Below, piece by piece: positions 15,887-62,463 of a stretch of DNA of 64,000 bases. How positions within the stretch are numbered: position 1 is the stretch's first letter; every line of letters starts with the position of its first letter. This stretch comes from Candidatus Poribacteria bacterium (GTDB lineage Bacteria > Poribacteria > WGA-4E > WGA-3G), in the NCBI GenBank assembly GCA_022825825.1, contig JAJDWA010000019.1, positions 40,046 to 104,045 on the forward strand, in the 5' to 3' direction. The translations under genes were made by a program, and so were the position numbers. A model generated the notes under the pieces. That model ran no database searches. It was not told the origin of the DNA and saw nothing but the letters and a program-made list of their open reading frames with translations.

Positions 15887-17482
15887 TTACAAAGTCCGTT
15901 TTTGAATCTCGTCTACCTCAAGTGTCTCCTCGTACCACGAACTCTCTTCAATGTTCTTACCTGATGCATTAGTGTATTTTTGTGGCTGCCACAAAAATTT
16001 GAGAGATAAATCACCACTGTTGTAAAAGATCACTTCTGCTTTGTCATCAGCGCCAATAATAGGGCGGACCAGGGAGAGAAGTGTTGATGGTATCTGATTT
16101 TGTCCATCCGCGTTTTTGATGGCTATGAACGGCGCAACCTTACCCAAAATCTCACGAGTGCCGAGAAGTAAAGGTCCGTAGCACGCGGTCACTGCACCTT
16201 GTCCCCAATTGCGTCCGTGCCCTGCAGCAACGGAGCAAACTGCACCCCCCATATCTGCATGTTCCCTTCCGCCGCGCAGCACACGATGTGCCATATTCAG
16301 ACGTGTGGCGGCATTCCGTAACGCTCTTACAGCATAAGCAACTTCACCTGTTATTTGATAGGCGAGTGTTAACGTCGCTGTTGACGGTTCTTGAATAGGT
16401 TTAACTGAACCGTCATCCGACCATTCTCCCCAATACGCCATATCCGATCGTTTTCCTACACCGGATTCTCGGCGGCGCGTTTCTTGTGGAAAAACGAGTG
16501 CCAACAATTCAGGTGAAGTTGATGGAAGCGCTTGTAAACCTTCAGTAATGGCACCATCAAAACAGGTATCGTTGAAAGTCCATCGGTAATAACTGAGTGC
16601 TGCGGCTGCGGGGTCATTGTAGGGATCGTTAAGCGATGTAACAAGCGGTTCAACAATACGTTTTGCTGCTGTCTGGAAAATCTCTTCGCCAGACAAGAGG
16701 TAAAGGTCACCCAACGCATAAATCGCACCAGACGCCAGTAGGTTCTCAATTCCTGCCAACGGATCTCCGGGAATATGATGCGAACTTGCAACAAGTCGAT
16801 GCAAATTTTTTGCGTCGACTTCTGCCTCGCTGAGACCATTTTCATTCAAATCCCAGAGCAGCGGCATCGGATCCGGCGCAGCGATGATCCGCTCAGCCCG
16901 TTTTCGTCCATATCGCAATGCCCACTCTACATATCGCTTTTCACCTGTAACGCTATATGCTGCCAAAGCGATATGGATAAAACGGAAGTGCTCTGCGAGT
17001 TCATAAGCATTCTTCTCATCATTTTCTACAAATTGCGTGCCGATATTGTAGCCGATAAACGTATCTCGCTCATAATCGTACCAGGGCGGTATTTCTGGCA
17101 CCCAATTCCCAATATGTTCTGCAGCATCTGTTAAAAGGGCAATTGCCTCAGTATCATCAGGCTTTATCCCAATATAACGGGGTAAGAAAAGCAGAAAAGG
17201 TTCTGGTCCGTGATGTGCTTCCGCCTTCGGTTCATATCCATGCACACAGTCACGTTCTATCCAACCGAAGAGTGCTGCTTTAAGCATGTCAAAGTGTTGC
17301 AAAACGGTTGGGTCGCCAGTGATTAAATAGTGTGGAAACCACGCAAGGGCGTAGTTTGCCTCATCCTCGCCGCCGTTGTTTGGACCGGGCGGGTCAAGCA
17401 GCATGCTCTGTTTAAGCCAACGCCCCATTTCTGTTCTGAGTTTGCTATAAGCGTTATAGCATTCGCTGAATTCGGATATCAT
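15887..17482 (-). CDS. hypothetical protein (helical-repeat, possibly alpha/alpha-toroid glycan-active enzyme)
   Basis: 531-aa ORF with no signal peptide. Its start overlaps the upstream stop by 4 nt (ATGA at 17479-17482). The composition is helical, W/Y-rich and reminiscent of heparinase/GH-like toroids, but I see no diagnostic motif. Confidence 0.6.
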   Translation of the reverse strand: MISEFSECYNAYSKLRTEMGRWLKQSMLLDPPGPNNGGEDEANYALAWFPHYLITGDPTVLQHFDMLKAALFGWIERDCVHGYEPKAEAHHGPEPFLLFLPRYIGIKPDDTEAIALLTDAAEHIGNWVPEIPPWYDYERDTFIGYNIGTQFVENDEKNAYELAEHFRFIHIALAAYSVTGEKRYVEWALRYGRKRAERIIAAPDPMPLLWDLNENGLSEAEVDAKNLHRLVASSHHIPGDPLAGIENLLASGAIYALGDLYLLSGEEIFQTAAKRIVEPLVTSLNDPYNDPAAAALSYYRWTFNDTCFDGAITEGLQALPSTSPELLALVFPQETRRRESGVGKRSDMAYWGEWSDDGSVKPIQEPSTATLTLAYQITGEVAYAVRALRNAATRLNMAHRVLRGGREHADMGGAVCSVAAGHGRNWGQGAVTACYGPLLLGTREILGKVAPFIAIKNADGQNQIPSTLLSLVRPIIGADDKAEVIFYNSGDLSLKFLWQPQKYTNASGKNIEESSWYEETLEVDEIQKRTL

Positions 17483-24100: not shown

Positions 24101-24881
24101 CCCATGCAAAGCTACTATTTCCCTCTACATTACATTGTGTGATAAAGACGAGTTCCACTTTTTCGCCTGCGTAGCGGGTTAAATCTACCCCGTTTTCGGT
24201 CCAATGGCACTCTGTTGAAACGGCTTCAAAACATTGTTCGCCAGCAATTTCAATAGAAAATTTAACACCACCAGGTTGCCTTTGCGGATCATCAAACACA
24301 ACACCATCCCTTAAACCGATGCTAAAATGTAGGTAGAGATTTTCATTCTCTTCAACTGAAGGAAGGGTTAATTCATAAACAATTCGTGCCGAATCGGTCG
24401 ATGATGGGTGTTCAAAAAGCGCGGGTTTTGTAACGCCGCCCGCTGTATCTGCCGTGTTAGCAGATACGTGTTCAGCACCAGAATGTTGGCTCTCCTCAAA
24501 CATTACTACGAAATCGAACAATTCCTCGCTCTCACCCAGAGAATAGGAGATTTGCGGTTCGCTTGGAGCGGGTGTCTCATCAACTTCAGGTGTTTCTTCG
24601 TAAGACAGGACGACAACTTCTTCTGACATTTCTTCAGGATGAGGTGTCTCTTCTAAATCAGGTGTTTCTGTATCTTCTGACGGAGCGTCCGAATCAGATT
24701 CCGGCTGTACATCATTGGAGGTTTCCGATTCCGCGTTTTCATCAATAGGTTCAGGCGAATCAGGATTAGGAACTTCGTTTTGATGTTCAGACTCCGGTTG
24801 TTCTTGATCAAGGACCTCCTCGTCATTTTGTGTTTCTTCTTCCATTTTTCCGATAAGAAAATGTTGGAAAAACGTCAGCAT
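21189..24881 (-). CDS. large hypothetical protein (1230 aa): acidic low-complexity N-terminus, beta-rich middle, helical toroid-like C-terminus
   Basis: The ORF is uninterrupted with RBS gaggag 8 nt before ATG at 24881. The first ~130 aa are E/D/P/S-rich. A CARDB-like stretch (VFDVQCTIRNVGPGPL) is present. The C-terminal third is W/Y/H-rich and helical. It lies 41 nt downstream of the DUF2961 gene. Confidence 0.7.
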   Translation of the reverse strand: MLTFFQHFLIGKMEEETQNDEEVLDQEQPESEHQNEVPNPDSPEPIDENAESETSNDVQPESDSDAPSEDTETPDLEETPHPEEMSEEVVVLSYEETPEVDETPAPSEPQISYSLGESEELFDFVVMFEESQHSGAEHVSANTADTAGGVTKPALFEHPSSTDSARIVYELTLPSVEENENLYLHFSIGLRDGVVFDDPQRQPGGVKFSIEIAGEQCFEAVSTECHWTENGVDLTRYAGEKVELVFITQCNVEGNSSFAWALWGQPKLLKLTRTETQHGFPPEVQCGLAIAKLPEERTAPFEFNREGWTLAHKIAAEIHNQLENEPIDLTLYASQPKLEIVSVGTTSAVVSAGEVFDVQCTIRNVGPGPLGKNSKTRLSISDVKLRRGRSTHYVKTLAPGETSTFVWCARSILRSTAINFSVSLKSRHLESTAKVESVVHIRPALPKLEAQVIPELHTYMHGEHVVIGNKNLRVVLVHNGEQSQAKSRKTSKNSKAKSKSGFEYYAIFVAKGNAYLQVATSKTVAEATYLSNDTVHNLKFIPNNVQLAGNSLGESIVRITGEHKDSDGVTWTLQSNFILTEDAKRIKTAYRLTVDGVRELLAFRGAEIYAGHKSTREKKTAALFPGLEFLEGNEPSSNTRDAAPPLNNRLVPHPYKITVPVMAVEVQKSVVGITWNPLHSWDGETQNVSAMFASPNWHHQERNHLMGLFVPTVPEWVEENTLVAETPYRLTPEQPLTIDCEIIADGNASILDAISHWTSAYGTPEPLESPRPDEEQVLLSRHGFMHTVWDEEARQSRHCVDWASQNEPGFATLLWYDYLVTKSEDVKERVKEIAEKTIADTDAGSLAARGSCHILSGEFPFYYGHLDAALGYYEAEVQPIIEAQTEDGSWGFQPTSEKTEKLGKPGDVVLGTCAANALKLLKHARITGNSTSFEAGKKALSFMDRFSVPRGAQAWECPLYEPDLLAAAHAIGAYVEAHEITGNKTYLRRAEYWAETGLPFLYHWHLPDRPGMQFASIPVFGTTFYTHPWFGVPVQWNGLVYAYYLQRLNQHTRDERWLKIAEGITISAMYQQWTDGELKGTYPDGFYGFCTEGKGPHLNPEDIMVNVYTLRGLDPGVKTAIADSIHLSSGATPEDVTTSRNGELKWSLNYAENEISHTLITGYEQIPSLIRVQTAESNGDRDDSPYDIPQVDSLEDVTSGWRYIEEKDAILIKQVHITADMQFQLLKNVE

Positions 24882-33721: not shown

Positions 33722-35809
33722 ATGGAAAACACTGACTTTGAACTGATTAAACGCACGTTATCTGGTGACCAGGACGCTTTTACCGCCCTTGTAGAGAAAT
33801 ATCAAAAACGGGTGCACGCGCTCGCCTGGCGAAAAACCGGGGATTTCCACGTCGCTGAAGAGATAACACAGGATACCTTCCTGAGAGCTTACAGAAAACT
33901 CGGCACCTTGAAAAATCCCGATCTATTTGCGGGATGGCTCTATGTTATCGCAAATCGTTTGTGCAATACTTGGTTCGAAAAGAAAGCACCTGATATGCAA
34001 TCGTTGGAAACTGTGCCAGCAATAGAACTCGAGGAACACGTTTATTCCGAATATACTGCCGAACAACGTGAAGAACGGGCATCAGAAAAACGGGTTGACC
34101 TTGTCAAGCGTCTCCTTCAAAAATTACCGGAAAGCGAACGAATAGTGGTAACACTCCATTACCTTGCAGGAAGTTCAGTTAAAGAGATTAGCGAATTTTT
34201 GGGCGTATCGTTGAACACGGTGAAAAGCCGTCTCTATCGCGCCCGTCAACGTTTACAGAAGGAGGATCACATGGTACGTGAAACTTTGGGAAGTTTCCAA
34301 CCCTCAGCGAACTTAACCGAGAATATCATCAGAACCCTTAAAGAAACTGGAACACAGATTGACCCTGTTGTGCCTTCAGGAAGTAAACCAATTGTGCCGT
34401 GGGTAATTGCCACTTCAACCCTTGTCTTGGTAGTACTCATGCTCGGACTCGGTGCACAGCACCTTGCACGTTTTCAGCAACCCTACAGCCTTGACGCAAC
34501 ATCCGAGATGGCAGTAGACATTGTTGACGCAGCTGTCCTGATGAACCTTCCATCCGATCCTAATGCCCAGAATCAAATCGGTAACGTTGACGCTCCCGAA
34601 AAAAGCGAGGGGACAAGTCAGCATTCTGATGCAAAGTTATCTTCCCCTGTTACTGGTCGCGTTGTTGATGAGGCAGGGAATATTGTATCTGGCATCCAAA
34701 TAGCAACCATACCTGTTGAAGATGGTGATGGTGCTTGGTTTCCTACCCAGAGAGATGAAAATGGTGAACCTATAGATATGTCTCAATATCAAGCGGAAAC
34801 TGACTCGGATGGGCGTTTCACCATTACCGATGCTATCACAGGACCCGTGTTATTAACTTTATTGCCGTATCATAAGCCAAAACCGGATATCCGCCTGTTA
34901 AAGGTTGAAATTGGGGGATTGTTTTTCTATCCAAGTGGATCCCTTGGAGTCCTAAAGGATGGAATTGTGTTTAGCACAACACCGGATGAGAACATTGAAA
35001 ACGTCAAAGTTACCGTTCTGCATTCGCCAAAAATCCGGGGCACAGTAAACCAGATGGACGGAACACCACTTACTAACAAGACCGTTGAACTGCACATCCA
35101 GGAGCGGAGTTTAAATCAAAGCTCTCGTATAGAAACTTCTGTGAGTACAGATGAAAATGGCTACTTTGAACTATATCTCCATAAAGATTTTTTGATACGT
35201 AACACAACAGATGTGCATAGAGATTATTTGATACGTAACACAGATGTGGAAGGTCCAACATTTTACATCATAAATGTGGTATATGTGCGACTGAGGGCGA
35301 GGTCAATTCTGATAAAAAATAACGCACAAAACCGGGAATTTGTCTTTAACTTGAAAATTTTACCAGACATTTCTGCCAGATCATCTTTTTCTTCAACATT
35401 GGACGCTATCGGGGTATGGGTCGTCAATCCGGAAAATGGACACGCCTACAAAAAAATCGGTTGCAAAAATCCCAATGATGCTATCGCTCAAGCTGGCAAA
35501 GAAGATGCTTATCTTGTCACAATTAACGATCAAACTGAACAGAATTGGCTGGAAAAGGTTTTCGGAGGTTCGGATGCCTTTATCGGACTCAACGATATTG
35601 CCGAGGAAGGTCAGTGGCAATGGCAGAGTGGTGAAACCGTCGTATATACCAATTGGGCAAAAGAAGCACTTGAGGATAATAACAGTAAACATGAGGATTA
35701 CGTTATTCTCAGCTATGGTAAATGGAAAGATATCGGTCCAAGAAGTCGAAATTGGTTCAAAACTCGAACGGCAATCCTTGAAAAAGTACAGACGTCTGTG
35801 AAGAAATAA
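33722..35809 (+). CDS. ECF sigma-70 factor fused to a TM helix, carboxypeptidase-regulatory-like beta domains and a C-terminal C-type lectin domain
   Basis: Sigma region 2 (aa 20-85, EEITQDTFLRAY) and region 4 (LPESERIVVTLHYLAGSSVKEISEFLGVSLNTVKSRLYRARQRL) are present. A TM helix lies at aa ~224-246. VTGRVVDEAGN and IRGTVNQMDGTPL are CarboxypepD_reg-like starts. The C-type lectin domain is WVVNPENGHAY...YLVTINDQTEQNWL...IGLND...GQWQWQSGE...YTNW. Confidence 0.8.
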   Translation: MENTDFELIKRTLSGDQDAFTALVEKYQKRVHALAWRKTGDFHVAEEITQDTFLRAYRKLGTLKNPDLFAGWLYVIANRLCNTWFEKKAPDMQSLETVPAIELEEHVYSEYTAEQREERASEKRVDLVKRLLQKLPESERIVVTLHYLAGSSVKEISEFLGVSLNTVKSRLYRARQRLQKEDHMVRETLGSFQPSANLTENIIRTLKETGTQIDPVVPSGSKPIVPWVIATSTLVLVVLMLGLGAQHLARFQQPYSLDATSEMAVDIVDAAVLMNLPSDPNAQNQIGNVDAPEKSEGTSQHSDAKLSSPVTGRVVDEAGNIVSGIQIATIPVEDGDGAWFPTQRDENGEPIDMSQYQAETDSDGRFTITDAITGPVLLTLLPYHKPKPDIRLLKVEIGGLFFYPSGSLGVLKDGIVFSTTPDENIENVKVTVLHSPKIRGTVNQMDGTPLTNKTVELHIQERSLNQSSRIETSVSTDENGYFELYLHKDFLIRNTTDVHRDYLIRNTDVEGPTFYIINVVYVRLRARSILIKNNAQNREFVFNLKILPDISARSSFSSTLDAIGVWVVNPENGHAYKKIGCKNPNDAIAQAGKEDAYLVTINDQTEQNWLEKVFGGSDAFIGLNDIAEEGQWQWQSGETVVYTNWAKEALEDNNSKHEDYVILSYGKWKDIGPRSRNWFKTRTAILEKVQTSVKK

Positions 35810-38341: not shown

Positions 38342-40690
38342 ATGAATAAACAACAAAAAGGTCCAAGAAGACATCATTGGAGATCACAATGGTATTTAGA
38401 TGGATTTTCTATACCGGATAATCCAGAGCATTGCCATGCACTTAATGTTGTATCAGGTCAAGCAATATGTAATGCTCATATAAAAAATCTGGCTGTTGAA
38501 AAGGATTTTTACAGATTTTTAGATGATTTTTCGGGTATAGAACCTCAAGTATCACAATTGGATGGTATCGTGAGCTCCATATTCTCTGAAATTGTTTCAG
38601 AGAATAAAATGACATTCAGAAACCAAGCTGAATACGAATACAAAACAGAAATGATGTTGCGTTTTATTGCACACATGATGGCTTTTGATCCTGCAGTAAG
38701 AGATGGCATAATTCATGCAGCTAAAATTATAGCACCTGAAGATATTACTGATAAGGACGATGTAGAGTCTATTCCAATGCATATAGTCTTTTACTTTGAG
38801 TATTTAGGGATTATTAGAAATATGGGGAGCAACATTGGATTCAAAATATTTACTGCAGGCGATGATAATTTTTTTATTTGCCCAGATGTCATTAATTTTA
38901 CAGTAACTTACGATAACGAGTTGCACTTATGTTTCCCCTTACATAAAAACCTATGCTTTTACGGCTGTACTTCAAAAGAAGTTTTAGATACTATTAATCC
39001 ATCTGTACCACAAATCAACACAATGCTCCTATTACATAGTAGACAATTTGTATATTTCCCCAGTTGGGATTTAGAAATAGATAATGGGATCAGTGAAATT
39101 CCGATTAAAGATTTAATAAATAAGGGAATAGATGAAATGATAGAAGTATGGCTACAAAAAAATCCTACTATCATTAATCCCTCCAGTCGTTGTCCAATCA
39201 ACATTAACCTAATCTTTAACATAACTGAAAAACACATACCTGATGACGCAAAAAAAGAAGCATCAGACTACATAGAAAAAACAATAAGCAATATTAAATC
39301 TGACATATACGCAATGTGCCTTGTACATGATGAAAATTACGATGGACGTAGCCCATTAGATTCAGACAAGTTCATAGAGATCACACGCGAAGTGTCCGAA
39401 CTTGCAGACCTAAATATCAAACATTTTTGTTCGAAGGACATGACAACTGTATTCTTTAGAATGCATGAGTCTAATGACGGCTCAAGTATGACCTTGCATA
39501 AAGTAAGACGAGAGGATATTAAAACAGAATCTGCCTTAAATTCACCAGTTATATGTAAGATTATGCCGTTCAATCAATGGCTAAATGCTGTTACAGACAG
39601 GATTTATGACAATGAAGGAGTCCGTATTGCCACAGAAATGGCTGAATCTGTAAAATGCCCGATAGATGCACAAGAAGCACATCTCTTTTTGTCAGGGTTT
39701 GCATCCTATACACAGTTCGAATTAAATAATATCCTCGACTTAGCGAGGCAGGGGAAAGCAACACCTGACATGAATATCCCATATTGTATATTGTTTCTAC
39801 CCGAATTCAAAGAAGGCAATATCATGGAAAATTGTAGTATGTTAGATATTGCTAACAAGGTGACTTCTCTTATGAATGCACAGTGGATAGATACTATTAC
39901 GGATTCTATTAGTTTAAATGAGATATTCCAATCTGATGAATTACTTATACCACATTCTGATAACAATTTATTACTTTTTTCATCTTGGGATAAAAAAATA
40001 GAGAATCTCTGTATTTCTAAAACACCTAAGTCGGGAGCAACATTTTCTATCTGGTTACATATTTTTAATTTGTGCCTTAGCACACCGAAATTTTTAGTAT
40101 TTGTTGCAATGAAAGAATATTCTACACTTTTAAAGACAATCTTAGACGATCTGGAACAAGTTATCCTCGGATATAAACTTAGCAATTCAATGCCTATTAT
40201 ATCGCTTATAGGCAAACCATCACGTCCAGAAGGGATAGCATTTCCAAACGGTTCAGAAATAAAATTTCTTGGATTAAGGAGTAAATATGGAGTAAGCAGT
40301 AAAAAAACAGCAGAAAAAATAGAAAAAGAACAGCCTCAGCTATTCTGGCTTAGTGATGATTCCAAGTATAACTATTTTGATTTTGATATGTGGAATCCAA
40401 TTCATAGAATCTTGCTATCACAAGACAAACAATGCCAGATAATATTTGAAACATATCCTAAATCGCCTAAGTATTGGATTTACAAATTGTTTCACTCACA
40501 CGAACCAGGAATTCTTGATTTGCATGAAGGTAAAGATATTGCAATAAGCGATACTATAGAGAAATGCGGTTCAATGATGTGGTTAGTTTTTAAGTTATCT
40601 GATAACCCAGTCATGGTTCATGAGCATAAAAAAAGAAAAGACGATGCGATAAAACTGCTTAAGCATATACAAATTGACAAATCACGTTAA
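38342..40690 (+). CDS. hypothetical 782-aa protein: DUF4238-like N-terminal domain plus ~500-aa uncharacterised C-terminal region
   Basis: The N-terminus RRHHWRSQWYLDGFS, IKNLAVEKDFYRF, FIAHMMAFDPAVRD and FKIFTAGDDNFFICPD follow the DUF4238 pattern (HHYvPqfYLr.F ... n.a.e.dfY ... F.tsD.P) as I remember it. The rest has no motif I recognise. The gene is strongly AT-rich. Confidence 0.7.
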   Translation: MNKQQKGPRRHHWRSQWYLDGFSIPDNPEHCHALNVVSGQAICNAHIKNLAVEKDFYRFLDDFSGIEPQVSQLDGIVSSIFSEIVSENKMTFRNQAEYEYKTEMMLRFIAHMMAFDPAVRDGIIHAAKIIAPEDITDKDDVESIPMHIVFYFEYLGIIRNMGSNIGFKIFTAGDDNFFICPDVINFTVTYDNELHLCFPLHKNLCFYGCTSKEVLDTINPSVPQINTMLLLHSRQFVYFPSWDLEIDNGISEIPIKDLINKGIDEMIEVWLQKNPTIINPSSRCPININLIFNITEKHIPDDAKKEASDYIEKTISNIKSDIYAMCLVHDENYDGRSPLDSDKFIEITREVSELADLNIKHFCSKDMTTVFFRMHESNDGSSMTLHKVRREDIKTESALNSPVICKIMPFNQWLNAVTDRIYDNEGVRIATEMAESVKCPIDAQEAHLFLSGFASYTQFELNNILDLARQGKATPDMNIPYCILFLPEFKEGNIMENCSMLDIANKVTSLMNAQWIDTITDSISLNEIFQSDELLIPHSDNNLLLFSSWDKKIENLCISKTPKSGATFSIWLHIFNLCLSTPKFLVFVAMKEYSTLLKTILDDLEQVILGYKLSNSMPIISLIGKPSRPEGIAFPNGSEIKFLGLRSKYGVSSKKTAEKIEKEQPQLFWLSDDSKYNYFDFDMWNPIHRILLSQDKQCQIIFETYPKSPKYWIYKLFHSHEPGILDLHEGKDIAISDTIEKCGSMMWLVFKLSDNPVMVHEHKKRKDDAIKLLKHIQIDKSR

Positions 40691-41142: not shown

Positions 41143-42579
41143 ATGACACAAAACTTCCCAGATAATACCCTTTATGAAATGGACAATTTAGATGTGCTGC
41201 GCGGCATGAACAGTCAAACGGTTGACCTCATCGCCACTGATCCACCATTCAACACGAAACGAAATCGGAGCGCAACAGCAGGACATTACGTTGATAACTG
41301 GAAATGGGGAGATACCGGTATACTTCCTGACCAATGGAAATGGAACGAAGTTCACCCGAAATGGCTTGAGGAGATCAAAGACAACCACACTGAACTTTAC
41401 CATGCCATTGACGCTGCCAAACATTGTCAAGGCGAGGACACTGCCGCATTCCTCTGCTTCCTCAGTGTTAGACTCATTGAAATGCATCGTGTCTTGAAAG
41501 AGACAGGTAGTATCTATTTGCACTGCGATCCAACTGCAAGTCATTACATCAAAATGTGTATGGACGCTATCTTTGGGAAAAAGAACTTTCGCAATGAGAT
41601 TGTGTGGCATTACCAAACTGGCGGTGTCAGTAAGAGGTGGTTTGGGCGCAAACATGATGTGATACATTTCTACACCAAAACAGAAAAATACTTTATTGAT
41701 TTGACACGGGTAAAAGACAGTAGAAGCGCGGAAGTACTTCGCCGTATAGAGAGTGGAAACGAAAATGCTACCCGTGCTAAAGATTTGGAAAGACTGCCGT
41801 TTGATGTTTGGAACATTCAAGCATTAAACGCAATGTCCAACGAACGTACAGGTTCTCCCGACCAAAAACCGCTTGCTCTTTACGAGCGCATTATCAAAGC
41901 CAGTAGCAACGAAGGAGACGTTGTATTAGACCCTTTCTGTGGGTGTGCCACAACGATCATTGCTGCCGACAAACACAAACGTCGTTGGATAGGCATTGAT
42001 AGACGAAAAGACGCGCGTTACCACATTATTACCCGTTTGATGGGAATTGATCGAAAAGAGCGGGAACGTCTTGAGAAAGTTGTGAAAGATGGTAGTGATC
42101 CGGGGTGGCTTGATAGACAAACACAAAAATACGAAATACACTACCAAACCGAACCCCCGACACGCACCGATGAAGCCGCGCAAACTTCGGCAGCGTTAGC
42201 ACACGTCTATACGACCCGATCCGAATCTCTGCACACGCATGCCGAGATGCACCAAATCCTTGTCAATCAGTTTGGACTCAAATGTTGGGGATGTAACTTT
42301 GTACCACCAGACAAAAGGTATTTACACCTTGACCACATTATCCCTAAAAGTGATGGCGGCACAAATGATATAAATAACCGTGCACTACTCTGCCAACCGT
42401 GCAATAGTAAAAAATCAAATACCATGAGTCTTAACGCACTTCGTAGACAAAACAAAAAGGAGGGCTACACACAATCTAACCCAGAGATAGACTTGCAAAA
42501 TGCACTTGCATGGACAAGAAACTATTTAATACAAACTATACGAGAAACACCGTACCAATTTAAGCTTGATAATTCCTAA
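41143..42579 (+). CDS. beta-class N4/N6 DNA methyltransferase fused to a C-terminal HNH nuclease domain
   Basis: Motif IV DPPF (DLIATDPPFN, aa 28-37) precedes motif I (VLDPFCGCATTIIAA, IGID), which is the beta-class order. The C-terminus CWGC...HLDHIIPKSDGGTNDINNRALLCQPCNSKKSN (nt ~42270-42420) is an HNH with a CxxC...CxxC zinc site. Confidence 0.85.
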   Translation: MTQNFPDNTLYEMDNLDVLRGMNSQTVDLIATDPPFNTKRNRSATAGHYVDNWKWGDTGILPDQWKWNEVHPKWLEEIKDNHTELYHAIDAAKHCQGEDTAAFLCFLSVRLIEMHRVLKETGSIYLHCDPTASHYIKMCMDAIFGKKNFRNEIVWHYQTGGVSKRWFGRKHDVIHFYTKTEKYFIDLTRVKDSRSAEVLRRIESGNENATRAKDLERLPFDVWNIQALNAMSNERTGSPDQKPLALYERIIKASSNEGDVVLDPFCGCATTIIAADKHKRRWIGIDRRKDARYHIITRLMGIDRKERERLEKVVKDGSDPGWLDRQTQKYEIHYQTEPPTRTDEAAQTSAALAHVYTTRSESLHTHAEMHQILVNQFGLKCWGCNFVPPDKRYLHLDHIIPKSDGGTNDINNRALLCQPCNSKKSNTMSLNALRRQNKKEGYTQSNPEIDLQNALAWTRNYLIQTIRETPYQFKLDNS

Positions 42580-54364: not shown

Positions 54365-54724
54365 TCAATTGTAAGCTGTTTGTAGAAGCATAATCGGAAT
54401 CGTTTCTGAGATTGACGGTGTGTAAGATGAGAGCAAAAGCACATCACTAACCGGTGGACGTTGCAGTACATCTATAACAATCTCTTGAAGATCATTGGAT
54501 AAATCGGATAAACCTGTGAGTGGAAAACTTCGAGGTCCCATGTCGGTTTTTTGTGCAAGTAAAGAGTACTCCAGCAAAGTCATCCCAATAGCGCGACGAT
54601 CTTGTTTGTTGAGTCGGAGCAAAATGTGGGGTGTTAATTCAATACCCGTTGCTTGTTCTCCAGAGGAAAATGAGATGTACAGTGTATCACTTACTTCATC
54701 GTAGTTAAAAATTGGTGGTGTCAT
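54365..54724 (-). CDS. DUF2283-like protein (possible antitoxin)
   Basis: The N-terminus NYDEVSDTLYISFSSGEQATGIELTPHILLRLNKQDRRAIGMTLLEYS follows the DUF2283 pattern (YD.e.D.lYi.f ... G.e.l). It lies 6 nt downstream of the 110-aa ORF. Confidence 0.55.
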   Translation of the reverse strand: MTPPIFNYDEVSDTLYISFSSGEQATGIELTPHILLRLNKQDRRAIGMTLLEYSLLAQKTDMGPRSFPLTGLSDLSNDLQEIVIDVLQRPPVSDVLLLSSYTPSISETIPIMLLQTAYN

Positions 54725-54730
54725 ATCAGT

Positions 54731-55063
54731 TTACCCTATCTGTTTTTGGAATGCTGTGACAATGTAGTTATTTGACAGTGGTTTACCGTCCGAATCTTCA
54801 CGAAACCGGAACAGAACAATTGCAACTATATGCGTATTATCTTCAGGCAAATCATCGAAGGAATTGACGTAACGGTATTTTTGTGGATTCAACTTATCTT
54901 GTGATCTTCTTCCGTAACGTATTGTCAACTTTAGGTGTTCTTCATGATTGATCATATTTGGATGGTTTACTGAGTTAGTAATATGCTGCCAACGTTCATG
55001 TGTGAGATAAATCTCATTTCTATACCGGTCAAACGTTGTCCAACGGATACCAATTGATTTCAT
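54731..55063 (-). CDS. hypothetical 110-aa protein (possible toxin partner)
   Basis: A compact ORF immediately upstream of the DUF2283-like gene, which is the usual toxin-first arrangement of DUF4258/DUF2283-type pairs. The family itself is not confidently recognised. Confidence 0.4.
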   Translation of the reverse strand: MKSIGIRWTTFDRYRNEIYLTHERWQHITNSVNHPNMINHEEHLKLTIRYGRRSQDKLNPQKYRYVNSFDDLPEDNTHIVAIVLFRFREDSDGKPLSNNYIVTAFQKQIG

Positions 55064-55910: not shown

Positions 55911-55963
55911 ATTATACAATTCGTAAATTCTAAATGAATACCAATTTGACAAGGAGAAACAGA

Positions 55964-56815
55964 ATGGTAACACAGGAACAAATCGACTTTTTTCAAGAAA
56001 ACGGCTATCTAAAATATGGTAAGGTTTTAGATAGCGATGGTGTCCAATCCATGCGCGATGGTTTAGATACCATCATTGAATTGGAACTCAACGAAGGTGA
56101 TGATTCATCTCCAGAATTCAAATACGGACATGATCGTCAAGGGCAGCAGCTCAATAGAGGCAGAGGTCACCCGCGTGCAATTCATCAATTCGTCAACATG
56201 TGGAAACGCGAAGCCAGTTATGAAGCTGCTATCCATAATCCGTCAATTGCAGGAACAGCGCGGGCATTGTTGGAGACTCCAGAAGTTAGACTTTGGCATG
56301 ATCAAGTTATTTCCAAACCACCACAAGATAACGGGCACTTCGGTTTTCATCACGATTTCTTCTTCTGGCCCCTGAGTCATCCAAATATTGTGAGTTGTTG
56401 GCTTGCTTTAGACAATGCTACGGTGGATAGCGGATGCATGCACGTCATGCCGAAAAGCCACAAAGACGAACGTTTCTCAGTCGAAGCGAAAGCAGCATTT
56501 GATGCGGAAACAGCAAAAGCACAAGAAGAAGGACGTGAACCACCCCCGAATCCGTGGGCAGAAAGGCGGAATTTAGATATTAGTCATGGCATTCCAGTAG
56601 AGTTGAAAGCAGGTGAGTGTATGTTCCATCACTGTCTCAACTGGCACGGCACACCGCCAAATGTTACAGATCGTCAACGGCGTGCATTTGTCATGATCTT
56701 TATGGCGCAAGGTGTTTGCTACAACAACGCGCAATCTCCGGGACACGTCCTCGTACCAACGATTGAGGTTGCAGATGGTGAACCGCTTGTCGGTGATGCG
56801 TTTCCAGTAGCATAA
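55964..56815 (+). CDS. phytanoyl-CoA dioxygenase family protein
   Basis: FFQENGYLKYGKVL N-terminus, HHD triad motif, and distal WHGTPPN. ATG at 55964 has RBS aaggag. Confidence 0.8.
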   Translation: MVTQEQIDFFQENGYLKYGKVLDSDGVQSMRDGLDTIIELELNEGDDSSPEFKYGHDRQGQQLNRGRGHPRAIHQFVNMWKREASYEAAIHNPSIAGTARALLETPEVRLWHDQVISKPPQDNGHFGFHHDFFFWPLSHPNIVSCWLALDNATVDSGCMHVMPKSHKDERFSVEAKAAFDAETAKAQEEGREPPPNPWAERRNLDISHGIPVELKAGECMFHHCLNWHGTPPNVTDRQRRAFVMIFMAQGVCYNNAQSPGHVLVPTIEVADGEPLVGDAFPVA

Positions 56816-56833
56816 CAAGATTTGGGTAGTGAG

Positions 56834-58063
56834 ATGAAAGATTCTACGTTTATCACGAGAGTCATTCTAAAGAACTATAAAAGTATCGCAGCTTGTGATG
56901 TGCAGTTACAGCCACTAACGTTTCTTGTAGGTCGCAACGGTGCAGGGAAGAGCAATTTTCTTGATGCGTTGCGATTCGTGGCAGATGCGTTAGATTCATC
57001 ATTGGAGCATGCAATACGCGATCGTGGGGGTATCAACGATGTCCGCCGCCGTTCTCGTGAGCACCCGAACCATTTCAGTATTCGCCTTGAATTCGTTTTG
57101 CCTGACGGTTCATCGGGACATTATGCTTTCCGAATTGGAACACGCTCTCCAGGAGGCTACGAGGTACAGAAAGAACAGTGTAAACTATATCCTGACATAT
57201 ACTTCCAAATTGAAAAAGGAACTGTGACGCATACAAGTGTCCAGGTTGCACCGCCTGCTGTGTCCGATCGACTCTACTTAGTAAACGCCTCAGGTTTGCC
57301 TGAATTTCGTCCTGTCTATGATGCATTTTCACGGATGGGATTTTACAATCTCAATCCTGACAAAATCCGAGATCCTCAAACACCTGATCATGGTAATATA
57401 CTAAATCGGAATGGCAGCAACATTACAAGTATCTTTGCGCAACTGTCCCCTAATGCGAAGCAAGACATTGAGGAATACCTTTCAATAATCGTACCTGGCG
57501 TTAGTGGTGTGGAAGTCGAAAAGTTTGGGGATAAGGAGATGTTAGTGTTCAGACAGGATGTTGCTGGTGACAAACACCCCTGGCATTTTCTTGCGAACAA
57601 TATGTCTGATGGCACACTCCGCGTGTTGGGAATTCTCGTAGCACTATTTCAAGGAAATCATGATACTCACAAGCACGTGTCACTTGTGGGAATTGAGGAG
57701 CCAGAGATAGCACTTCATCCAGGGGCGGTAGCCGTACTGCTTGATGGTCTTCGGGATGCTGCCCACAGAACACAGGTTATCGTCACCACTCACAGTCCAG
57801 AGCTGCTTGATGACAAGCACCTGGATGTAAACTCAATTCTGGCAGTTGAAGCACACGATGGCGATACAGTGATCGCTCCAGTGGATGAGGCAAGCAAATC
57901 TGTGGTGCAAGATCGACTGTTTACGGCTGGAGAACTTTTACGGAGTAATCAATTGCAACCAGATCCGGCAGCTCTCTCTACTGCAAAGGAGAAACAACTA
58001 TCTTTGCCTGATTTTGATAAGCCAAAGCCTGGTAAAGCGGAGAGTAGAGGAAAGCACAAATGA
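56834..58063 (+). CDS. ABC-type (AAA_21/OLD-family-like) ATPase
   Basis: Walker A GRNGAGKSN (nt 56930-56953), signature-like MSDGTLRVL, Walker B LVGIEEPEIALHP, and H-loop VTTHSPELL. No fused nuclease domain is present. Confidence 0.8.
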   Translation: MKDSTFITRVILKNYKSIAACDVQLQPLTFLVGRNGAGKSNFLDALRFVADALDSSLEHAIRDRGGINDVRRRSREHPNHFSIRLEFVLPDGSSGHYAFRIGTRSPGGYEVQKEQCKLYPDIYFQIEKGTVTHTSVQVAPPAVSDRLYLVNASGLPEFRPVYDAFSRMGFYNLNPDKIRDPQTPDHGNILNRNGSNITSIFAQLSPNAKQDIEEYLSIIVPGVSGVEVEKFGDKEMLVFRQDVAGDKHPWHFLANNMSDGTLRVLGILVALFQGNHDTHKHVSLVGIEEPEIALHPGAVAVLLDGLRDAAHRTQVIVTTHSPELLDDKHLDVNSILAVEAHDGDTVIAPVDEASKSVVQDRLFTAGELLRSNQLQPDPAALSTAKEKQLSLPDFDKPKPGKAESRGKHK

Positions 58064-58677
58064 CAGTCAAAATCGGTTGTATTGTCGAAGGGGAAAGCGA
58101 GGTGGAAACTGTACCCCTTCTGATTCGCCGTATCGATGCGAATCTTTATCCAGAATTGCCGATTATTGTGCCACCACCTATTCGCCGTCCCCGGAATAAG
58201 GTTGTTAAAGAGAACGAACTTGAAAGAGCAGTTGAATTCGTGGCTCGGCAGATTGGTGGGGAAGGTGCTATATTTATCATCCTTGATAGTGACGATGACT
58301 GTCCAGCAGAACTGGGACCTGAACTGCTTCATAGAGCGTCACAGACTCGTAGCGATTTACCGATTGCTGTTGTCCTTGCTAAACAAGAATTTGAGGCGTG
58401 GTTTCTTGCATCAGCGGAATCTCTACGTGGGAAGAGAGGATTAAAAAGTGATATTAATTCTCCAAATAATCCTGAAGCAATCCGTGGTGCAAAAGAGTGG
58501 TTGTATCAGCGGATGCAAACGGGTAATACGTACAGTGAAACAAGCGACCAACCCGCACTTGCAGCACTCTTTGACATTGAGAAAGCACGTCAAGCAGATT
58601 CGTTTGACAAATGCTACCGCGACATTGTTTGGCTTCTTGAAGAATTGCAAAAAGCAAATGATTTAACAAATGAATAA
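58060..58677 (+). CDS. DUF4276 family protein (Toprim-like E...DxD motifs)
   Basis: The start overlaps the ATPase stop (ATGA). Motifs are IVEGESE (aa 8-14), ILDSDDD (aa 74-80) and AKQEFEAWFLA. The pattern matches what I recall of DUF4276. Confidence 0.7.
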   Translation: MTVKIGCIVEGESEVETVPLLIRRIDANLYPELPIIVPPPIRRPRNKVVKENELERAVEFVARQIGGEGAIFIILDSDDDCPAELGPELLHRASQTRSDLPIAVVLAKQEFEAWFLASAESLRGKRGLKSDINSPNNPEAIRGAKEWLYQRMQTGNTYSETSDQPALAALFDIEKARQADSFDKCYRDIVWLLEELQKANDLTNE

Positions 58678-58729
58678 GGAAAGAATTGTCTAACACATCA
58701 AATTTACCAACTGAAATGGAGAATTGAAC

Positions 58730-60133
58730 ATGGAAAACAAACCAAATGTCATATTTGTTCTAACAGACGACCAAGGCCCTTGGGCAGCAGGCTGCTGCGG
58801 TAACGATGAGGTCCGCACCCCTTATATTGACCAACTTGCTGCAGAAGGCACACGTTTTCCTAACTTTTTTTGCACGAGTCCTGTCTGCTCACCCGCACGT
58901 GCAAGCCTCATGACCGGGCGTATCCCTTCAGCACACGGGGTACACGACTGGATTCGCGACGGAAATATGCCACCTGACCCCTCACGGTATCTTGAAGGTT
59001 TAACCTGCTATACCGATGTTCTTGCTGAGAACAATTACACGGTAGGATTGAGCGGCAAGTGGCACCTCGGAGATAGTCTAACACCGCAGCACGGCTTCAG
59101 TCACTGGTTCGCGTTACCCACCGGTGGTAGCCAATACAACGACGCGAATATGATCCGAGATGGACAAGTAGAGCAGCAACCTGGCTATCTAACTGATGTT
59201 ATCACTGATGATGCGTTAGAATTCATTTCAGCAAATAGTAATGCTCCGTTCTACCTTAGTGTCAACTATAATGCACCACATACCCCTTTTACAGGACATC
59301 CACAAGATATTGTTGATTCTTATGATGATTGTCCATTTAAAACGTGTCCACAAGAATCGTTACATCCGTGGGCAATACAAGGGGCAGCAGCACACATGGG
59401 CAATCGTGAGTCGTTAAAAGGCTATTTTGCTGCGATAACGGCACTTGATTTAAACGTCGGAAGGATTTTAGAACGGCTTGATGAGTTAGGTATCCGAGAA
59501 AACACGCTTGTTGTCTTTAGTAGTGATAACGGTTATTCATGCGGGCATCACGGATTTTGGCACAAAGGTAACGGCACGTTCCCACTGAATATGTATGAAA
59601 ACTCGGTAAAAGTTCCCTTTGTTATCAGTCAACCCGGTAGGATTCCAGAAGGACACGTCAGTGAGGCGATGGTGAGTCAATACGATTTCATGCCAACACT
59701 CCTTGATTATCTCGGTTTACCCGATCCAAATGATGATATGTCCCCCGGTAGAAGTTTTGTCCCCGCACTTACGGGAGAAACAAACGATGCGCAAGATGAA
59801 ATCGTTGTTTTTGATGAATACGGCCCTGTGCGTATGATCCGCACGCAAGAGTGGAAATATGTGCACCGATATCCTTACGGTCCACATGAATTGTACGACT
59901 TAGTGAAAGATCCGGGTGAACGTAAGAATCTGATAGATGAGAATGAACATAATGCCTTGATCTCCGATATGCGGCAACAGATGGGCGCATGGTTTGAGCG
60001 GTACGTAGTACCGGAATTGGATGGAGCAAGATGTTCGGTCACTGGCGGCGGACAAGCAGCTAAAATAGGTGAAGGTAATTACGGCGAAGATTCGTTCCAT
60101 CCAAGATATGCCTCACCTCGGCGAAATGTGTAG
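58730..60133 (+). CDS. Cys-type sulfatase (arylsulfatase A family), no signal peptide
   Basis: NVIFVLTDDQG and the formylglycine motif CSPARASLMTGR. ATG at 58730. Confidence 0.9.
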   Translation: MENKPNVIFVLTDDQGPWAAGCCGNDEVRTPYIDQLAAEGTRFPNFFCTSPVCSPARASLMTGRIPSAHGVHDWIRDGNMPPDPSRYLEGLTCYTDVLAENNYTVGLSGKWHLGDSLTPQHGFSHWFALPTGGSQYNDANMIRDGQVEQQPGYLTDVITDDALEFISANSNAPFYLSVNYNAPHTPFTGHPQDIVDSYDDCPFKTCPQESLHPWAIQGAAAHMGNRESLKGYFAAITALDLNVGRILERLDELGIRENTLVVFSSDNGYSCGHHGFWHKGNGTFPLNMYENSVKVPFVISQPGRIPEGHVSEAMVSQYDFMPTLLDYLGLPDPNDDMSPGRSFVPALTGETNDAQDEIVVFDEYGPVRMIRTQEWKYVHRYPYGPHELYDLVKDPGERKNLIDENEHNALISDMRQQMGAWFERYVVPELDGARCSVTGGGQAAKIGEGNYGEDSFHPRYASPRRNV

Positions 60134-60179
60134 TGGATGCATTCACAGACGGTTCGGTAATATCAACTGGAGAAAAGGG

Positions 60180-61718
60180 ATGCCAGAACATGAGAAAAAC
60201 CGTACAACAAACATTTCGCGTCGGCATTTTTTGAAAAATATTGGTACGGGTGCTGCCGCTGCAGCCTTGACTCCAGCAACCTTAATCAGCGGAGGAAAAA
60301 CAGGAGGAAATCAAATGCAAAATCAACCAAATGTCATTTTTATCCTAACTGACGACCAAGGTCCTTGGGCAGCAGGTTGTTGCGGCAATGATGAAGTCCG
60401 TACACCATTTATCGACCAGCTCGCTTCAGAAGGGACACGTTTTCCCAATTTTTTCTGCACAACTCCTGTATGTTCTCCGGCACGCGCAAGCCTGATGACT
60501 GGACGCATCCCCTCAGCACACGGTGTCCATGATTTTTGCCGTGACGGCAGCATGCCACCTAACGCTGAACGTTATCTTGAAGGTTTGACCTGCTATACCG
60601 ATGTGCTCGCAGAGAATAATTACACCGTGGGATTGAGTGGAAAGTGGCATCTGGGTGATAGTTTGACACCACAACACGGGTTTAACCACTGGTTCGCTAT
60701 GCCCTTAGGTGGAAGCAGATACAACAACGCCAACATGATTCGAGATGGTCAGGTTGAAGTGCAACCCGGCTACCTTACAGATGTTATTACCGATGACGCA
60801 TTAGATTTTATATCTAAAAATAAAGAAGGACCGTTCTACCTTAGTGTTAACTATAACGCGCCACATACCCCGTTTAACGGACATCCGAAAGACATCGTTG
60901 CTTCTTATGATAATTGTCCGTTCAAAACATGTCCGCAGGAGGCATTGCATCCGTGGGCAGGACGCGGCACAAACCAACACATGGGCAATCGCGAGTCGTT
61001 GAAAGGGTATTTCGCAGCAATAACAGCAATGGATCTAAACGTTGGGCGCATTTTAGAGCGACTTGCTGAGTTAGACATCCGCGAAAATACGCTTGTTGTT
61101 TTTAGTAGTGATAACGGCTATTCGTGTGGACATCACGGATTTTGGCATAAAGGCAACGGGACATTCCCACTGAATATGTATGAGAATTCGGTCAAGGTGC
61201 CTTTTATCATGAGCCAACCCGGTACGATTCCAGAAGGGCGTGTCAGTGAAGCGATGATGAGTCAATACGATTTCATGCCGACACTCCTTGATTATCTCGG
61301 TTTACCCGATCCGAATGATGATATGTCACCTGGCAGAAGTTTTGTCCCCGCCCTAACCAGAAAAACAAACGATGCGCAAGATGAGGTCGTTGTCTTCGAT
61401 GAATACGGTCCTGTCCGCATGATCCGCACGCAAGAATGGAAATATGTCCATCGTTATCCTTACGGTCCACATGAATTATATGACTTAATAAAAGATCCAG
61501 GAGAGCGAAAAAATCTAATAGACGACAAGTCGCAGAAAGCATTGATAACCGATATGCGGCGACAGATGGGTGCATGGTTTGAGCGGTACGTAGACCCGCG
61601 ATTGGACGGCACAAGATGTGCTGTTACCGGCAGAGGACAAAGGGCAAAGATTGGAGATGGAGTGTATGGTGAAGATGCCTTCAATCCAAGGGAAGGCAGA
61701 CGTGGATCAAGAGCTTAG
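60180..61718 (+). CDS. Cys-type sulfatase (arylsulfatase A family) with Tat signal peptide
   Basis: ATG at 60180 with RBS ggag. Tat motif SRRHFLKNIGTGAAAAAL, then NVIFILTDDQG and CSPARASLMTGR. It is a close paralog of the preceding gene. Confidence 0.9.
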   Translation: MPEHEKNRTTNISRRHFLKNIGTGAAAAALTPATLISGGKTGGNQMQNQPNVIFILTDDQGPWAAGCCGNDEVRTPFIDQLASEGTRFPNFFCTTPVCSPARASLMTGRIPSAHGVHDFCRDGSMPPNAERYLEGLTCYTDVLAENNYTVGLSGKWHLGDSLTPQHGFNHWFAMPLGGSRYNNANMIRDGQVEVQPGYLTDVITDDALDFISKNKEGPFYLSVNYNAPHTPFNGHPKDIVASYDNCPFKTCPQEALHPWAGRGTNQHMGNRESLKGYFAAITAMDLNVGRILERLAELDIRENTLVVFSSDNGYSCGHHGFWHKGNGTFPLNMYENSVKVPFIMSQPGTIPEGRVSEAMMSQYDFMPTLLDYLGLPDPNDDMSPGRSFVPALTRKTNDAQDEVVVFDEYGPVRMIRTQEWKYVHRYPYGPHELYDLIKDPGERKNLIDDKSQKALITDMRRQMGAWFERYVDPRLDGTRCAVTGRGQRAKIGDGVYGEDAFNPREGRRGSRA

Positions 61719-61881
61719 ATTTTTCCCATTATATTCTGTGTGGTAATTGCGCCCTACATAGAAATATGGGTTTGCTATGTGTGAGATCATCTTTTTAGCC
61801 GTTGAACAGACTTTGGGTATGCTATTTAACAGCAACTGAACTACAATGGACGCAGATTTTCTGAATATTAAGGAGGATATT

Positions 61882-62463
61882 ATGGCAGCTATTGCAGTGC
61901 AAACCCACCTGACACCTGAGGAGTACCTCGCGTGGGAACGCAAAGCCCCCTTCAAAAATGAATATCTCAGCGGACAGATACTCGCGATGTCTGGCGCGAG
62001 CCTCGCGCATAATCTGATCACAGGCAATATATTTAATGGACTTTACAACCAACTGGTGAATCGAGAATGTATGACTTTTAGCAGCGAAATGCGCGTGAAG
62101 GCGAACCCAATAACATCTTACTTTTATCCGGATGTCACCGTTGTCTGCGATGACCCCCGTTTTGAAGATGATGTGTTTGATACGCTCCTCAACCCAACTG
62201 TTATCGTAGAGGTGCTTTCCCCATCAACTGCAGCTTATGACAAAGGGGAGAAATTTGAGTCTTATAAGCAGATCGTGTCCTTGCAAGAATACGTCCTTGT
62301 TTCACAAGACAAAGTAAACGTTGAACGCCATTTTCGCTTAGAAATGCAGTGGAGGACTATTGAATTTCAGGATATCGCGGATGTGCTGCCACTGGATTCA
62401 ATTCGCTGCGAACTGCCTTTGAGTCATATCTATCGACGTGTCCAATGGACGGATACACCCTGA
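61882..62463 (+). CDS. Uma2 (DUF820) family endonuclease
   Basis: TPEEYLAWERKAPFKNEYLSGQI, YPDVTVVC and NPTVIVEVLSPST..YDKGEKFESY form the typical Uma2 PD-(D/E)xK pattern. ATG at 61882 with RBS aaggagg. Confidence 0.8.
   Translation: MAAIAVQTHLTPEEYLAWERKAPFKNEYLSGQILAMSGASLAHNLITGNIFNGLYNQLVNRECMTFSSEMRVKANPITSYFYPDVTVVCDDPRFEDDVFDTLLNPTVIVEVLSPSTAAYDKGEKFESYKQIVSLQEYVLVSQDKVNVERHFRLEMQWRTIEFQDIADVLPLDSIRCELPLSHIYRRVQWTDTP

Follow-up and report, generated by a model that had tools for sequence, protein, structure and literature searches.

The HEC-01 gene pair

The DNA analysed here (hereafter the window) is a stretch of 64,000 nucleotides from a Candidatus Poribacteria bacterium (GenBank assembly GCA_022825825.1, contig JAJDWA010000019.1, positions 40,046 to 104,045 of the forward strand), in which two overlapping genes, encoding an ATP-binding cassette (ABC) ATPase and a DUF4276 protein, are located within a run of metabolic genes. 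We found that the pair, as judged from its profile matches, is a Poribacteria allele of the catalogued candidate anti-phage module HEC-01 and not a new pairing. Its first product (HEC-01A) matches the PADLOC model PDLC04178 with an E-value of 9.5e-164 (aa 1-383 on model positions 1-389 of 399) and the second (HEC-01B) the model PDLC04196 with an E-value of 6.5e-72 (aa 1-195 on model positions 1-194 of 197), the genes being neighbours on one strand with an ATGA overlap. The PADLOC check suggested by an earlier reading of the letters alone (the sequence-only reading) returned full-length matches to both components. Other PADLOC families match the ATPase far more weakly (AriA 1.8e-29, mad3 4.9e-27, Old 5.2e-25, AbiLi 4.1e-24, GajA 9.9e-18), and all 116 of 116 diverse relatives of the DUF4276 protein are recognized as HEC-01B.

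HEC-01, or Hma-embedded candidate 1, was introduced as a pair located inside Hma systems, an ABC ATPase being accompanied by a TOPRIM-like protein, and its metal site was aligned to that of B. pseudomallei (Burkholderia) OLD (Payne et al., 2024, bioRxiv 10.1101/2024.01.29.577857). It belongs to the 12 most abundant system types of a cold-seep survey from 2026, with one representative shielding E. coli B against one or more of the phages T4/T5/T7 (PMC12881386). The pairing of an ATPase with a DUF4276 protein is also already published as Mad3-Mad4 of MADS (PMC11464382, PMC12065111). The sequence-only reading had supposed that this pairing is absent from the validated systems and had itself offered an existing name for the pair as the ground for giving up that claim. 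As the pair is already named HEC-01 and has been tested twice, and Mad3-Mad4 represents the same pairing, the claim of novelty falls. As a system type, the window pair adds little: HEC-01 is in PADLOC and ATPase plus DUF4276 is already counted among OLD-like systems.

The two open reading frames (ORFs), their overlap and all the motifs quoted in the sequence-only reading, including LVGIEEPEIALHP in the ATPase, were found in place (Table 1). Its residue numbering was right for the Walker A lysine, K39; for the conserved acidic residues of the partner, E11 and D77-D79 had to be corrected to E10 and D76/D78.

Table 1. Positions of the two genes, their motifs and the flanking anchor genes in the window
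Feature	Position	Strand	Remarks
HEC-01A, 409 aa	56834..58063	+	ATG 56834 to TGA 58063; ABC-type AAA_21/AAA_15, SMC_N-like ATPase, presumed sensor/regulator
HEC-01B, 205 aa	58060..58677	+	ATG 58060 to TAA 58677; DUF4276, presumed Toprim-like metal-dependent nuclease effector
ATGA start/stop overlap of HEC-01A and HEC-01B	58060..58063	+	read from the sequence
Walker A / P-loop GRNGAGKS, HEC-01A aa 33-40, K39	56930..56953	+	G33, N35, G36, G38, K39, S40 invariant (43- and 62-homologue alignments)
Variable segment 1, HEC-01A aa ~90-140	57101..57253	+	beta-rich insert after the P-loop helix; model strands 80-134
Variable segment 2, HEC-01A aa ~183-255	57380..57598	+	insert preceding the signature motif
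ABC signature-like motif NNMSDGTLR, HEC-01A aa 255-263	57596..57622	+	N256-R263 invariant or at least 90% conserved (43 and 62 homologues)
Walker B / D-loop LVGIEEPE, HEC-01A aa 284-291	57683..57706	+	G286, P290, E288 (A2) / E291 (A3) invariant; others at least 90%
H-loop TTHSP, HEC-01A aa 318-322	57785..57799	+	H320, S321 invariant (43 and 62 homologues)
IVEGESE, HEC-01B aa 8-14	58081..58101	+	end of strand 1; putative catalytic E10, acidic E14
ILDSDDD, HEC-01B aa 74-80	58279..58299	+	DxD (D76-S-D78), end of central strand
EFEAW, HEC-01B aa 110-114	58387..58401	+	second acidic cluster, preceded by strand 102-107
PhyH dioxygenase	55934..56815	+	upstream anchor, context, not part of the module; PF05721 1.6e-36
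Sulfatase	58724..60133	+	downstream anchor, context, not part of the module; PF00884 8.3e-51

The description of HEC-01A as an ABC ATPase of the OLD/SMC type that lacks a nuclease domain is borne out. Pfam recognizes AAA_21 (6e-32), AAA_15 (2e-23) and SMC_N (2.2e-13) in it and no Toprim domain, the protein ending without a nuclease domain, and the conserved Walker A, signature-like, Walker B/D-loop and H-loop motifs follow one another in the canonical order. Since 81 of 82 homologues begin at the ATG equivalent to 56834, the TTG at 56822 further upstream is not taken as the start. The closest PDB sequence is that of the OLD-family protein 6p74 (1.2e-9), followed by PtuA and GajA. The structure model of HEC-01A, built from a shallow alignment of close homologues only, is of low confidence (pLDDT, for predicted local distance difference test, 56), and its local Foldseek matches to Rad50, PtuA and SMC heads support the ABC ATPase class and nothing finer, giving no information on closeness to AriA or OLD. 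Variation among the 57 syntenic alleles discussed below is concentrated in two segments lying between the conserved ABC motifs, with a mean column identity of 0.56-0.68 in segment 1 (vs. 0.9 in the motif regions) and 0.59-0.69 in segment 2.

HEC-01B is assigned by Pfam to DUF4276 (2.1e-13). In an alignment of 116 representatives (40-68% identity), D76, E112, W114 and S181 are invariant, and V9 (114/116), E10 (112/116), G11 (115/116) and E110 (114/116) nearly so; position 14 is E or D in every sequence, at position 78, 112 of the 116 have D or E, and R24 and R42 are conserved in at least 90%. The AlphaFold2 model based on this alignment (pLDDT 97.7; predicted template modelling score, pTM, 0.92) consists of strand 3-9, helix 12-29, short strands around 34-42, helix 53-64, strand 70-76, helix 82-96 and strand 102-107, the C-terminal half of the protein being helical. 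Strands 3-9, 70-76 and 102-107 each carry one of the acidic clusters (E10, D76/D78 and E110/E112) at their C-terminal end. A conserved Glu after strand 1 and a DxD after the central strand, i.e., the Toprim motif, are both present, and the placement of the clusters in the model would correspond to a Toprim arrangement. A Foldseek search of BFVD viral models with this model returned an RloB-like protein as a significant top match (E 2.6e-4, prob 1.0, TM 0.49). RloB (11/116) and DUF3226 recur as weak Pfam matches among the relatives, and weak sequence links lead from the family to RloB, AbiLii (0.0048 for the window protein) and mad4 (3/116 relatives). The published Menshen analysis assigned both DUF4276 and RloB to the Toprim superfamily, with Mad4 as a DUF4276 protein (PMC12065111).

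The two genes clearly belong together. A survey of their adjacency, as recommended by the sequence-only reading, revealed HEC-01B directly 3' of HEC-01A in 82 of the 89 copies of the latter in related loci, and the 4-nt overlap is retained in 35 of 71 scored pairs. At several loci the ATPase ends about 20 codons sooner, leaving a gap of 38-67 nt to HEC-01B, which shows that its Lys-rich tail is dispensable. Moreover, a 609-aa Dehalococcoidia protein (P0138) is a natural fusion of the two, its residues 7-361 being 46% identical to HEC-01A and residues 414-604 51% identical to HEC-01B; this fusion recreates the single-chain OLD layout. The pair is also encoded by a Streptomyces megaplasmid (NZ_CP107915.1), annotated as "AAA family ATPase" and "DUF4276 family protein" beside Fic toxin genes, and by two unrelated metagenome lineages beside housekeeping genes, so that its neighbours in other phyla include SurA/Dus, ThiC/MscL and Fic genes. 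The association of the two genes is far beyond chance.

As a separate observation on this plasmid (locus L142, 5714-8570), another AAA family ATPase gene followed by an ATP-dependent helicase gene, a Gabija-like combination, lies about 1.1 kb 3' of the pair, and the Fic toxin pair lies 5' of it.

A fixed chromosomal site with divergent alleles

In the window, the pair is inserted between PhyH, from which it is separated by 18 nt, and a sulfatase ORF, 46 nt downstream, all genes being on the forward strand. Two sulfatases follow, both PF00884 with E-values of about 1e-50 each. The pair does not differ from its flanks in GC content (46-48%), no flanking repeats were found, and neither a tRNA scan of the locus nor an Rfam search gave any match. 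These results agree with the sequence-only reading, which had placed the pair in a metabolic gene run devoid of mobile-element signatures. No mobile island carries the module in Poribacteria, where it occupies a long-resident chromosomal locus between PhyH and the sulfatase.

Relatives were collected from a genome collection with one genome per species; of the 195 detected, the best 80 were kept and 115 left out. Candidatus Poribacteria account for 78 of these best 80, and the order PhyH-A-B-sulfatase of the window recurs at 57 genome loci from at least 57 species. Upstream, the conserved order extends to SDR-PhyH-A-B-sulfatase. The homologues that bear a name, and every close genome match, likewise come from Candidatus Poribacteria. 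Likewise, a PhyH-anchored scan of metagenomes found HEC-01A directly after PhyH in 6/6 Poribacteria contigs with downstream sequence.

Such packing and synteny might suggest that the pair is an accessory of the PhyH/sulfatase catabolic operon, e.g., a regulator or an assembly factor, whose position is functional; the two intergenic gaps are short and no terminator-like site lies between the genes. Yet, the pair is found in at least three other unrelated Poribacteria contexts and beside the SurA/Dus, ThiC/MscL and Fic genes of other phyla, more distant PhyH homologues (<72% identity) have no pair beside them, and neither protein resembles sulfatase-maturation or regulatory families. We consider this explanation barely plausible.

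Several other genes around the site are variable. Between an ABC transporter gene and the SDR gene, on the reverse strand (54365-55063), lie genes for a 119-aa DUF2283 protein and a 110-aa protein without a Pfam match. This two-gene cassette occurs in only part of the syntenic Poribacteria loci and is thus a variable, toxin-antitoxin-like insert. The second sulfatase gene (60069-61718, forward strand) and a gene for a Uma2-family putative endonuclease (61846-62463, forward strand; 2e-30) are each present in a subset of the loci only; thus, the region 3' of the pair is also prone to insertions and deletions.

The pair itself is highly divergent at its constant position. Mean pairwise protein identity across the syntenic loci is 86.8% for PhyH and 91.5% for the sulfatase vs. 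71.6% for HEC-01A and 70.8% for HEC-01B, and in species pairs with flanks 96-98% identical, HEC-01A and HEC-01B are mostly 58-79% identical. At the nucleotide level, an identity of 92-98% gives way to one of 58-84% precisely where the pair meets its flanks; in the closest relative of the window locus, identity within the pair is mosaic. The distance matrices of the two flanks correlate with each other (Spearman 0.70) better than those of the pair do with the flanks (0.21-0.35), with HEC-01A vs. HEC-01B giving 0.43. As for synonymous divergence (dS), 11 of the 14 close species pairs compared have values of 0.95-1.7 for the pair vs. 0.17-0.5 for the flanks (up to 0.89 in more distant pairs), which is 3-7 times the flank value. 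A few species pairs are reversed, with an HEC-01A dS of 0.03 vs. a flank dS of 0.10-0.27. Faster protein evolution alone was considered as the cause of the divergence and rejected, since dS is raised as well and some pairs show the opposite. The ratio of nonsynonymous to synonymous divergence (dN/dS) is 0.11-0.23 in the pair and 0.02-0.10 in the flanks (with one value of 0.17), which indicates that both HEC-01A and HEC-01B are under constraint.

The 89 copies of HEC-01A fall into 74 clusters at 90% identity, and one allele cluster unites loci of different chromosomal contexts. A-B-A arrays are present in four genomes. These patterns mean that the alleles, old or exchanged, are kept at a fixed site by purifying selection, and decay is not indicated. 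Exchange between species would run by recombination through the conserved flanks, and this pattern is the one expected of an arms-race gene pair.

Three kinds of unusual copies deserve mention. In one Poribacteria genome, the PhyH-sulfatase site is occupied by three A-B pairs in tandem (locus L008, 2844-8545), with copies about 70% identical to the window proteins. Orphan HEC-01A ATPases without HEC-01B form their own clade and lie just 5' of the sulfatase (L010 4120-5313, L036 6721-7959, L061 6750-7976, L068 6913-8148 and L095/L097 6928-8154); they follow a normal A-B pair, and in L095/L097 the orphan is the only copy. In turn, the HEC-01B copies of L015 (6001-6615) and L037 (6001-6600) contain in-frame stops, L037 having also lost HEC-01A; these stops may stem from sporadic decay of the locus or from errors in the assembly.

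A vertically inherited, lineage-specific housekeeping pair of the Poribacteria core genome, acting in DNA maintenance like RecF (an ABC ATPase) with RecR (Toprim), is very unlikely in our opinion. The ATPase has weak N-terminal matches to RecF/Rad50/SMC and structural matches to Rad50/SMC, the position is fixed in every orthologous locus examined, and the pair shares GC content, strand and tight packing with its neighbours. The RecF model TIGR00611 reaches, however, only 29.9 bits vs. a cut-off of 172 and covers just the P-loop (aa 7-50), and a dS several times that of the flanks, decoupled relationships, tandem triplication, orphan copies and in-frame stops are atypical of housekeeping genes. 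Furthermore, the same subfamily is encoded inside the Hma/Septu/RM islands of other Poribacteria.

Defence contexts and a proposed role

The Poribacteria relatives of HEC-01B that are located near defence genes are 62-73% identical to the window protein. In the loci L056, L031 and L058, the HEC-01B gene is followed by HmaA (3.3e-193), and in L056 and L058 next by Septu PtuA (4.5e-132, scored in L056), while in L072 the pair has the gene of an HKD+Snf2 protein (1e-111) on one side and that of a type IIG restriction enzyme (8e-150) on the other. Further neighbours include PDC-S19, a GajB-like helicase, zeta-toxin and MNT genes. Apart from the HmaA islands, the pair is found in Poribacteria next to periplasmic binding proteins with PD40 proteins and next to an RsmI-like methylase with an enolase-family gene.

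A mobile or phage origin was considered and rejected: a search of IMG/VR found no relatives of HEC-01B and one of 72,556 plasmids only three, and the locus is without flanking repeats, a tRNA or a shift in GC content.

Altogether, we consider it probable, largely by analogy with better-known systems, that the pair is an HEC-01-type two-gene immunity module consisting of a sensor ATPase and a nuclease effector, within the group of OLD-like ABC ATPase plus Toprim systems. What the analysis establishes are the domain identities, the conservation of the motifs, the adjacency of the two genes and their fusion, the allele pattern and the link to defence islands at other loci; the roles of sensor and effector, the nuclease activity, its substrate and the trigger are those we infer from this analogy. 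As in PARIS and OLD, HEC-01A would hold the DUF4276 nuclease in check and would use its two variable inserts to sense a cue coming from an invader; ATP binding or hydrolysis might then license HEC-01B by releasing or activating it. HEC-01B would in turn bind a divalent metal via E10, D76/D78 and E110/E112 and cut nucleic acid, candidate substrates being DNA, as for OLD/GajA, or tRNA, as for PARIS AriB.

A number of results weigh against this immunity role or against the nuclease assignment on which it leans. The model of HEC-01B gave nothing at E<=1e-3 in a Foldseek search of the PDB, where the best matches (0.014) were unrelated Rossmann-like folds and AriB (8ux9_A) came at rank 21 with a non-significant E of 0.095; the profile of the 116 relatives found no match among PDB sequences. 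In hhalign, this profile aligned non-significantly with P2 Old (E 0.22) and with nine IMG/VR Old homologues (E 0.097), a database query with the Toprim half of P2 Old, intended for a deeper profile, having yielded 5 fragments only. In both of these alignments, the register places IVEGhGE of HEC-01B on LLVEGKTE, VEG on VEG, inside the Pfam Toprim domain of P2 Old. The Toprim reading of DUF4276 proposed from the sequence alone is therefore partly verified: the conserved E...DxD, the succession of strands and helices and the RloB-like model match stand in its favour, the PDB Foldseek and P2 Old comparisons do not, and Toprim membership is supported by motif and literature, short of independent proof. 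As for the locus, no relatives of HEC-01B were found in IMG/VR viral contigs, the repeat search gave no mobile-element mark, and no empty PhyH-sulfatase site was seen among the 57 syntenic loci and the 6 PhyH-anchored contigs. Fixation of this kind in a lineage is unusual among defence systems; a lineage-specific role in the cell would fit it too. Promoter and terminator scans gave counts not above the shuffled expectation and do not set the pair apart from its metabolic neighbours. Finally, the two activity tests of HEC-01 conflict: one representative gave no protection in E. coli (bioRxiv 10.1101/2024.01.29.577857), and the positive test was a single spot assay of unstated magnitude (PMC12881386).

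The negative phage test would also suit a selfish addiction module of the toxin-antitoxin type, or an anti-plasmid module, without an anti-phage role, in which HEC-01B is a toxic nuclease, HEC-01A its ATP-dependent neutraliser, and the pair persists since its loss is costly. The Pfam label of AAA_21 reads "putative AbiEii toxin, type IV TA system", the NetFlax toxin-antitoxin network includes nodes of an AAA ATPase with RloB/Toprim, zeta-toxin, MNT and Fic genes are among the neighbours of relatives, and the site is never empty in the syntenic lineage. Addiction modules are, however, usually patchy and mobile, and the pair is syntenic in at least 57 species without mobile marks; the pseudogenised copies of L015 and L037 imply that its loss is tolerated. 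Also, the concentration of hyperdiversity in the ATPase inserts suggests recognition of changing targets over simple neutralisation, and one HEC-01 did protect against phage. We regard the addiction explanation as unlikely.

Coming back to the immunity module, its new part is evolutionary: in the sponge-symbiont Poribacteria, HEC-01 occupies one fixed chromosomal site with highly divergent alleles. A syntenic, hypervariable solo HEC-01 locus is not reported in the two HEC-01 papers (bioRxiv 10.1101/2024.01.29.577857, PMC12881386). It shows that a module of the defence type can become fixed throughout a symbiont lineage and yet behave like an arms-race gene. The locus offers a comparative series of more than 80 alleles at one site with near-identical flanks and variation in two ATPase inserts, which makes the question of the sensor directly testable by allele swaps. 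A more far-reaching proposal, to which we give somewhat less than even credence, is that HEC-01 in Poribacteria would be a fixed, phylum-wide immune locus with long-lived polymorphism, whose dozens of deeply diverged A-B alleles, tandem copies and orphan HEC-01A lineage are swapped between species and at least three sites by homologous recombination, with the two ATPase inserts as the specificity determinants. If true, the locus would correspond, among bacteria, to the highly polymorphic loci of host defence, and its natural series of alleles could serve to find out what HEC-01 senses.

Elsewhere in the window, a forward-strand gene (41143-42579) encodes a 478-aa N6/N4 DNA methylase (PF01555, 9.8e-45; PADLOC MTase_II, 6e-56) fused to a C-terminal HNH endonuclease (2e-12), which may be a single-chain restriction-modification enzyme. 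It adjoins a 782-aa ORF (38342-40690, forward strand) with only an N-terminal DUF4238 (5.5e-10) and no PADLOC match, and the two may form a second defence-like patch. Two reverse-strand ORFs are without a Pfam match, one of 1230 aa (21189-24881), which has no PADLOC match either, and one of 531 aa (15887-17482). A 695-aa protein (33722-35809, forward strand) is an unusual sigma-factor fusion, in which N-terminal ECF sigma-70 regions 2/4 are followed by CarboxypepD_reg and C-type lectin domains.

Comparison with known systems

The window pair consists of the two HEC-01 proteins, with gene order and strand as in that system, and its Poribacteria relatives include pairs embedded next to HmaA. It differs in being a solo copy between metabolic genes, outside any Hma system, and in belonging to a hypervariable locus that is syntenic across the lineage.

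The same pairing of domains is encountered in MADS (Maestri et al., 2024), in which Mad3 is an AAA_15/21 ABC ATPase and Mad4 a DUF4276 protein (PMC11464382, PMC12065111). However, HEC-01A scores 102.8 bits with the NCBIfam MAD3 model (NF047739), below its cut-off of 420, and HEC-01B has no mad4 match, three of its 116 relatives matching weakly. Nor do methyltransferase or other mad genes accompany the pair, the neighbours of which encode PhyH, SDR and sulfatases.

The class 1 OLD proteins (P2 Old and the Burkholderia/Thermus OLD) and GajA represent the same ABC ATPase lineage and share the E...DxD chemistry, and in the fused relative P0138 the domains are ordered as in OLD. In contrast to the single polypeptide of class 1 OLD, the window domains are encoded by separate genes, and HEC-01B does not match OLD-like_TOPRIM (PF20469). 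With respect to Gabija, GajA matches HEC-01A only in part and no helicase is encoded nearby as a GajB partner.

AbiL (AbiLi with the RloB-like AbiLii) and RloA/RloB of type I restriction-modification loci also combine an ATPase with a small Toprim-like protein in two genes, and RloB is both the closest structural relative of HEC-01B found and its commonest secondary Pfam match (11/116). The AbiL matches are weak (AbiLi 4.1e-24, AbiLii 0.0048) and belong to different Pfam families. RecF/RecR differs in that HEC-01A stays below the RecF equivalog score.

Compared with PARIS, HEC-01B is a DUF4276 protein without a DUF4435/AriB match in Pfam or PADLOC, and the AriA models match only parts of HEC-01A (1.8e-29 and 3e-25, vs. 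9.5e-164 for the HEC-01A model). PARIS is typically carried by phages or satellites, whereas the IMG/VR search found no relatives of HEC-01B. Nevertheless, the placement of the pair among split ABC ATPase plus Toprim systems such as PARIS, as proposed in the sequence-only reading, holds at the level of architecture; AbiL and MADS3-4 have been counted among the same systems (PMC11464382). PARIS likewise consists of a split ABC ATPase (AriA) and a Toprim-type effector (AriB), and the recognition parts of its ATPase are poorly conserved, with the catalytic motifs kept (PMC11464382). With its ATPase scaffold, trigger binding and effector release, PARIS is the best available mechanistic template for the Poribacteria pair.

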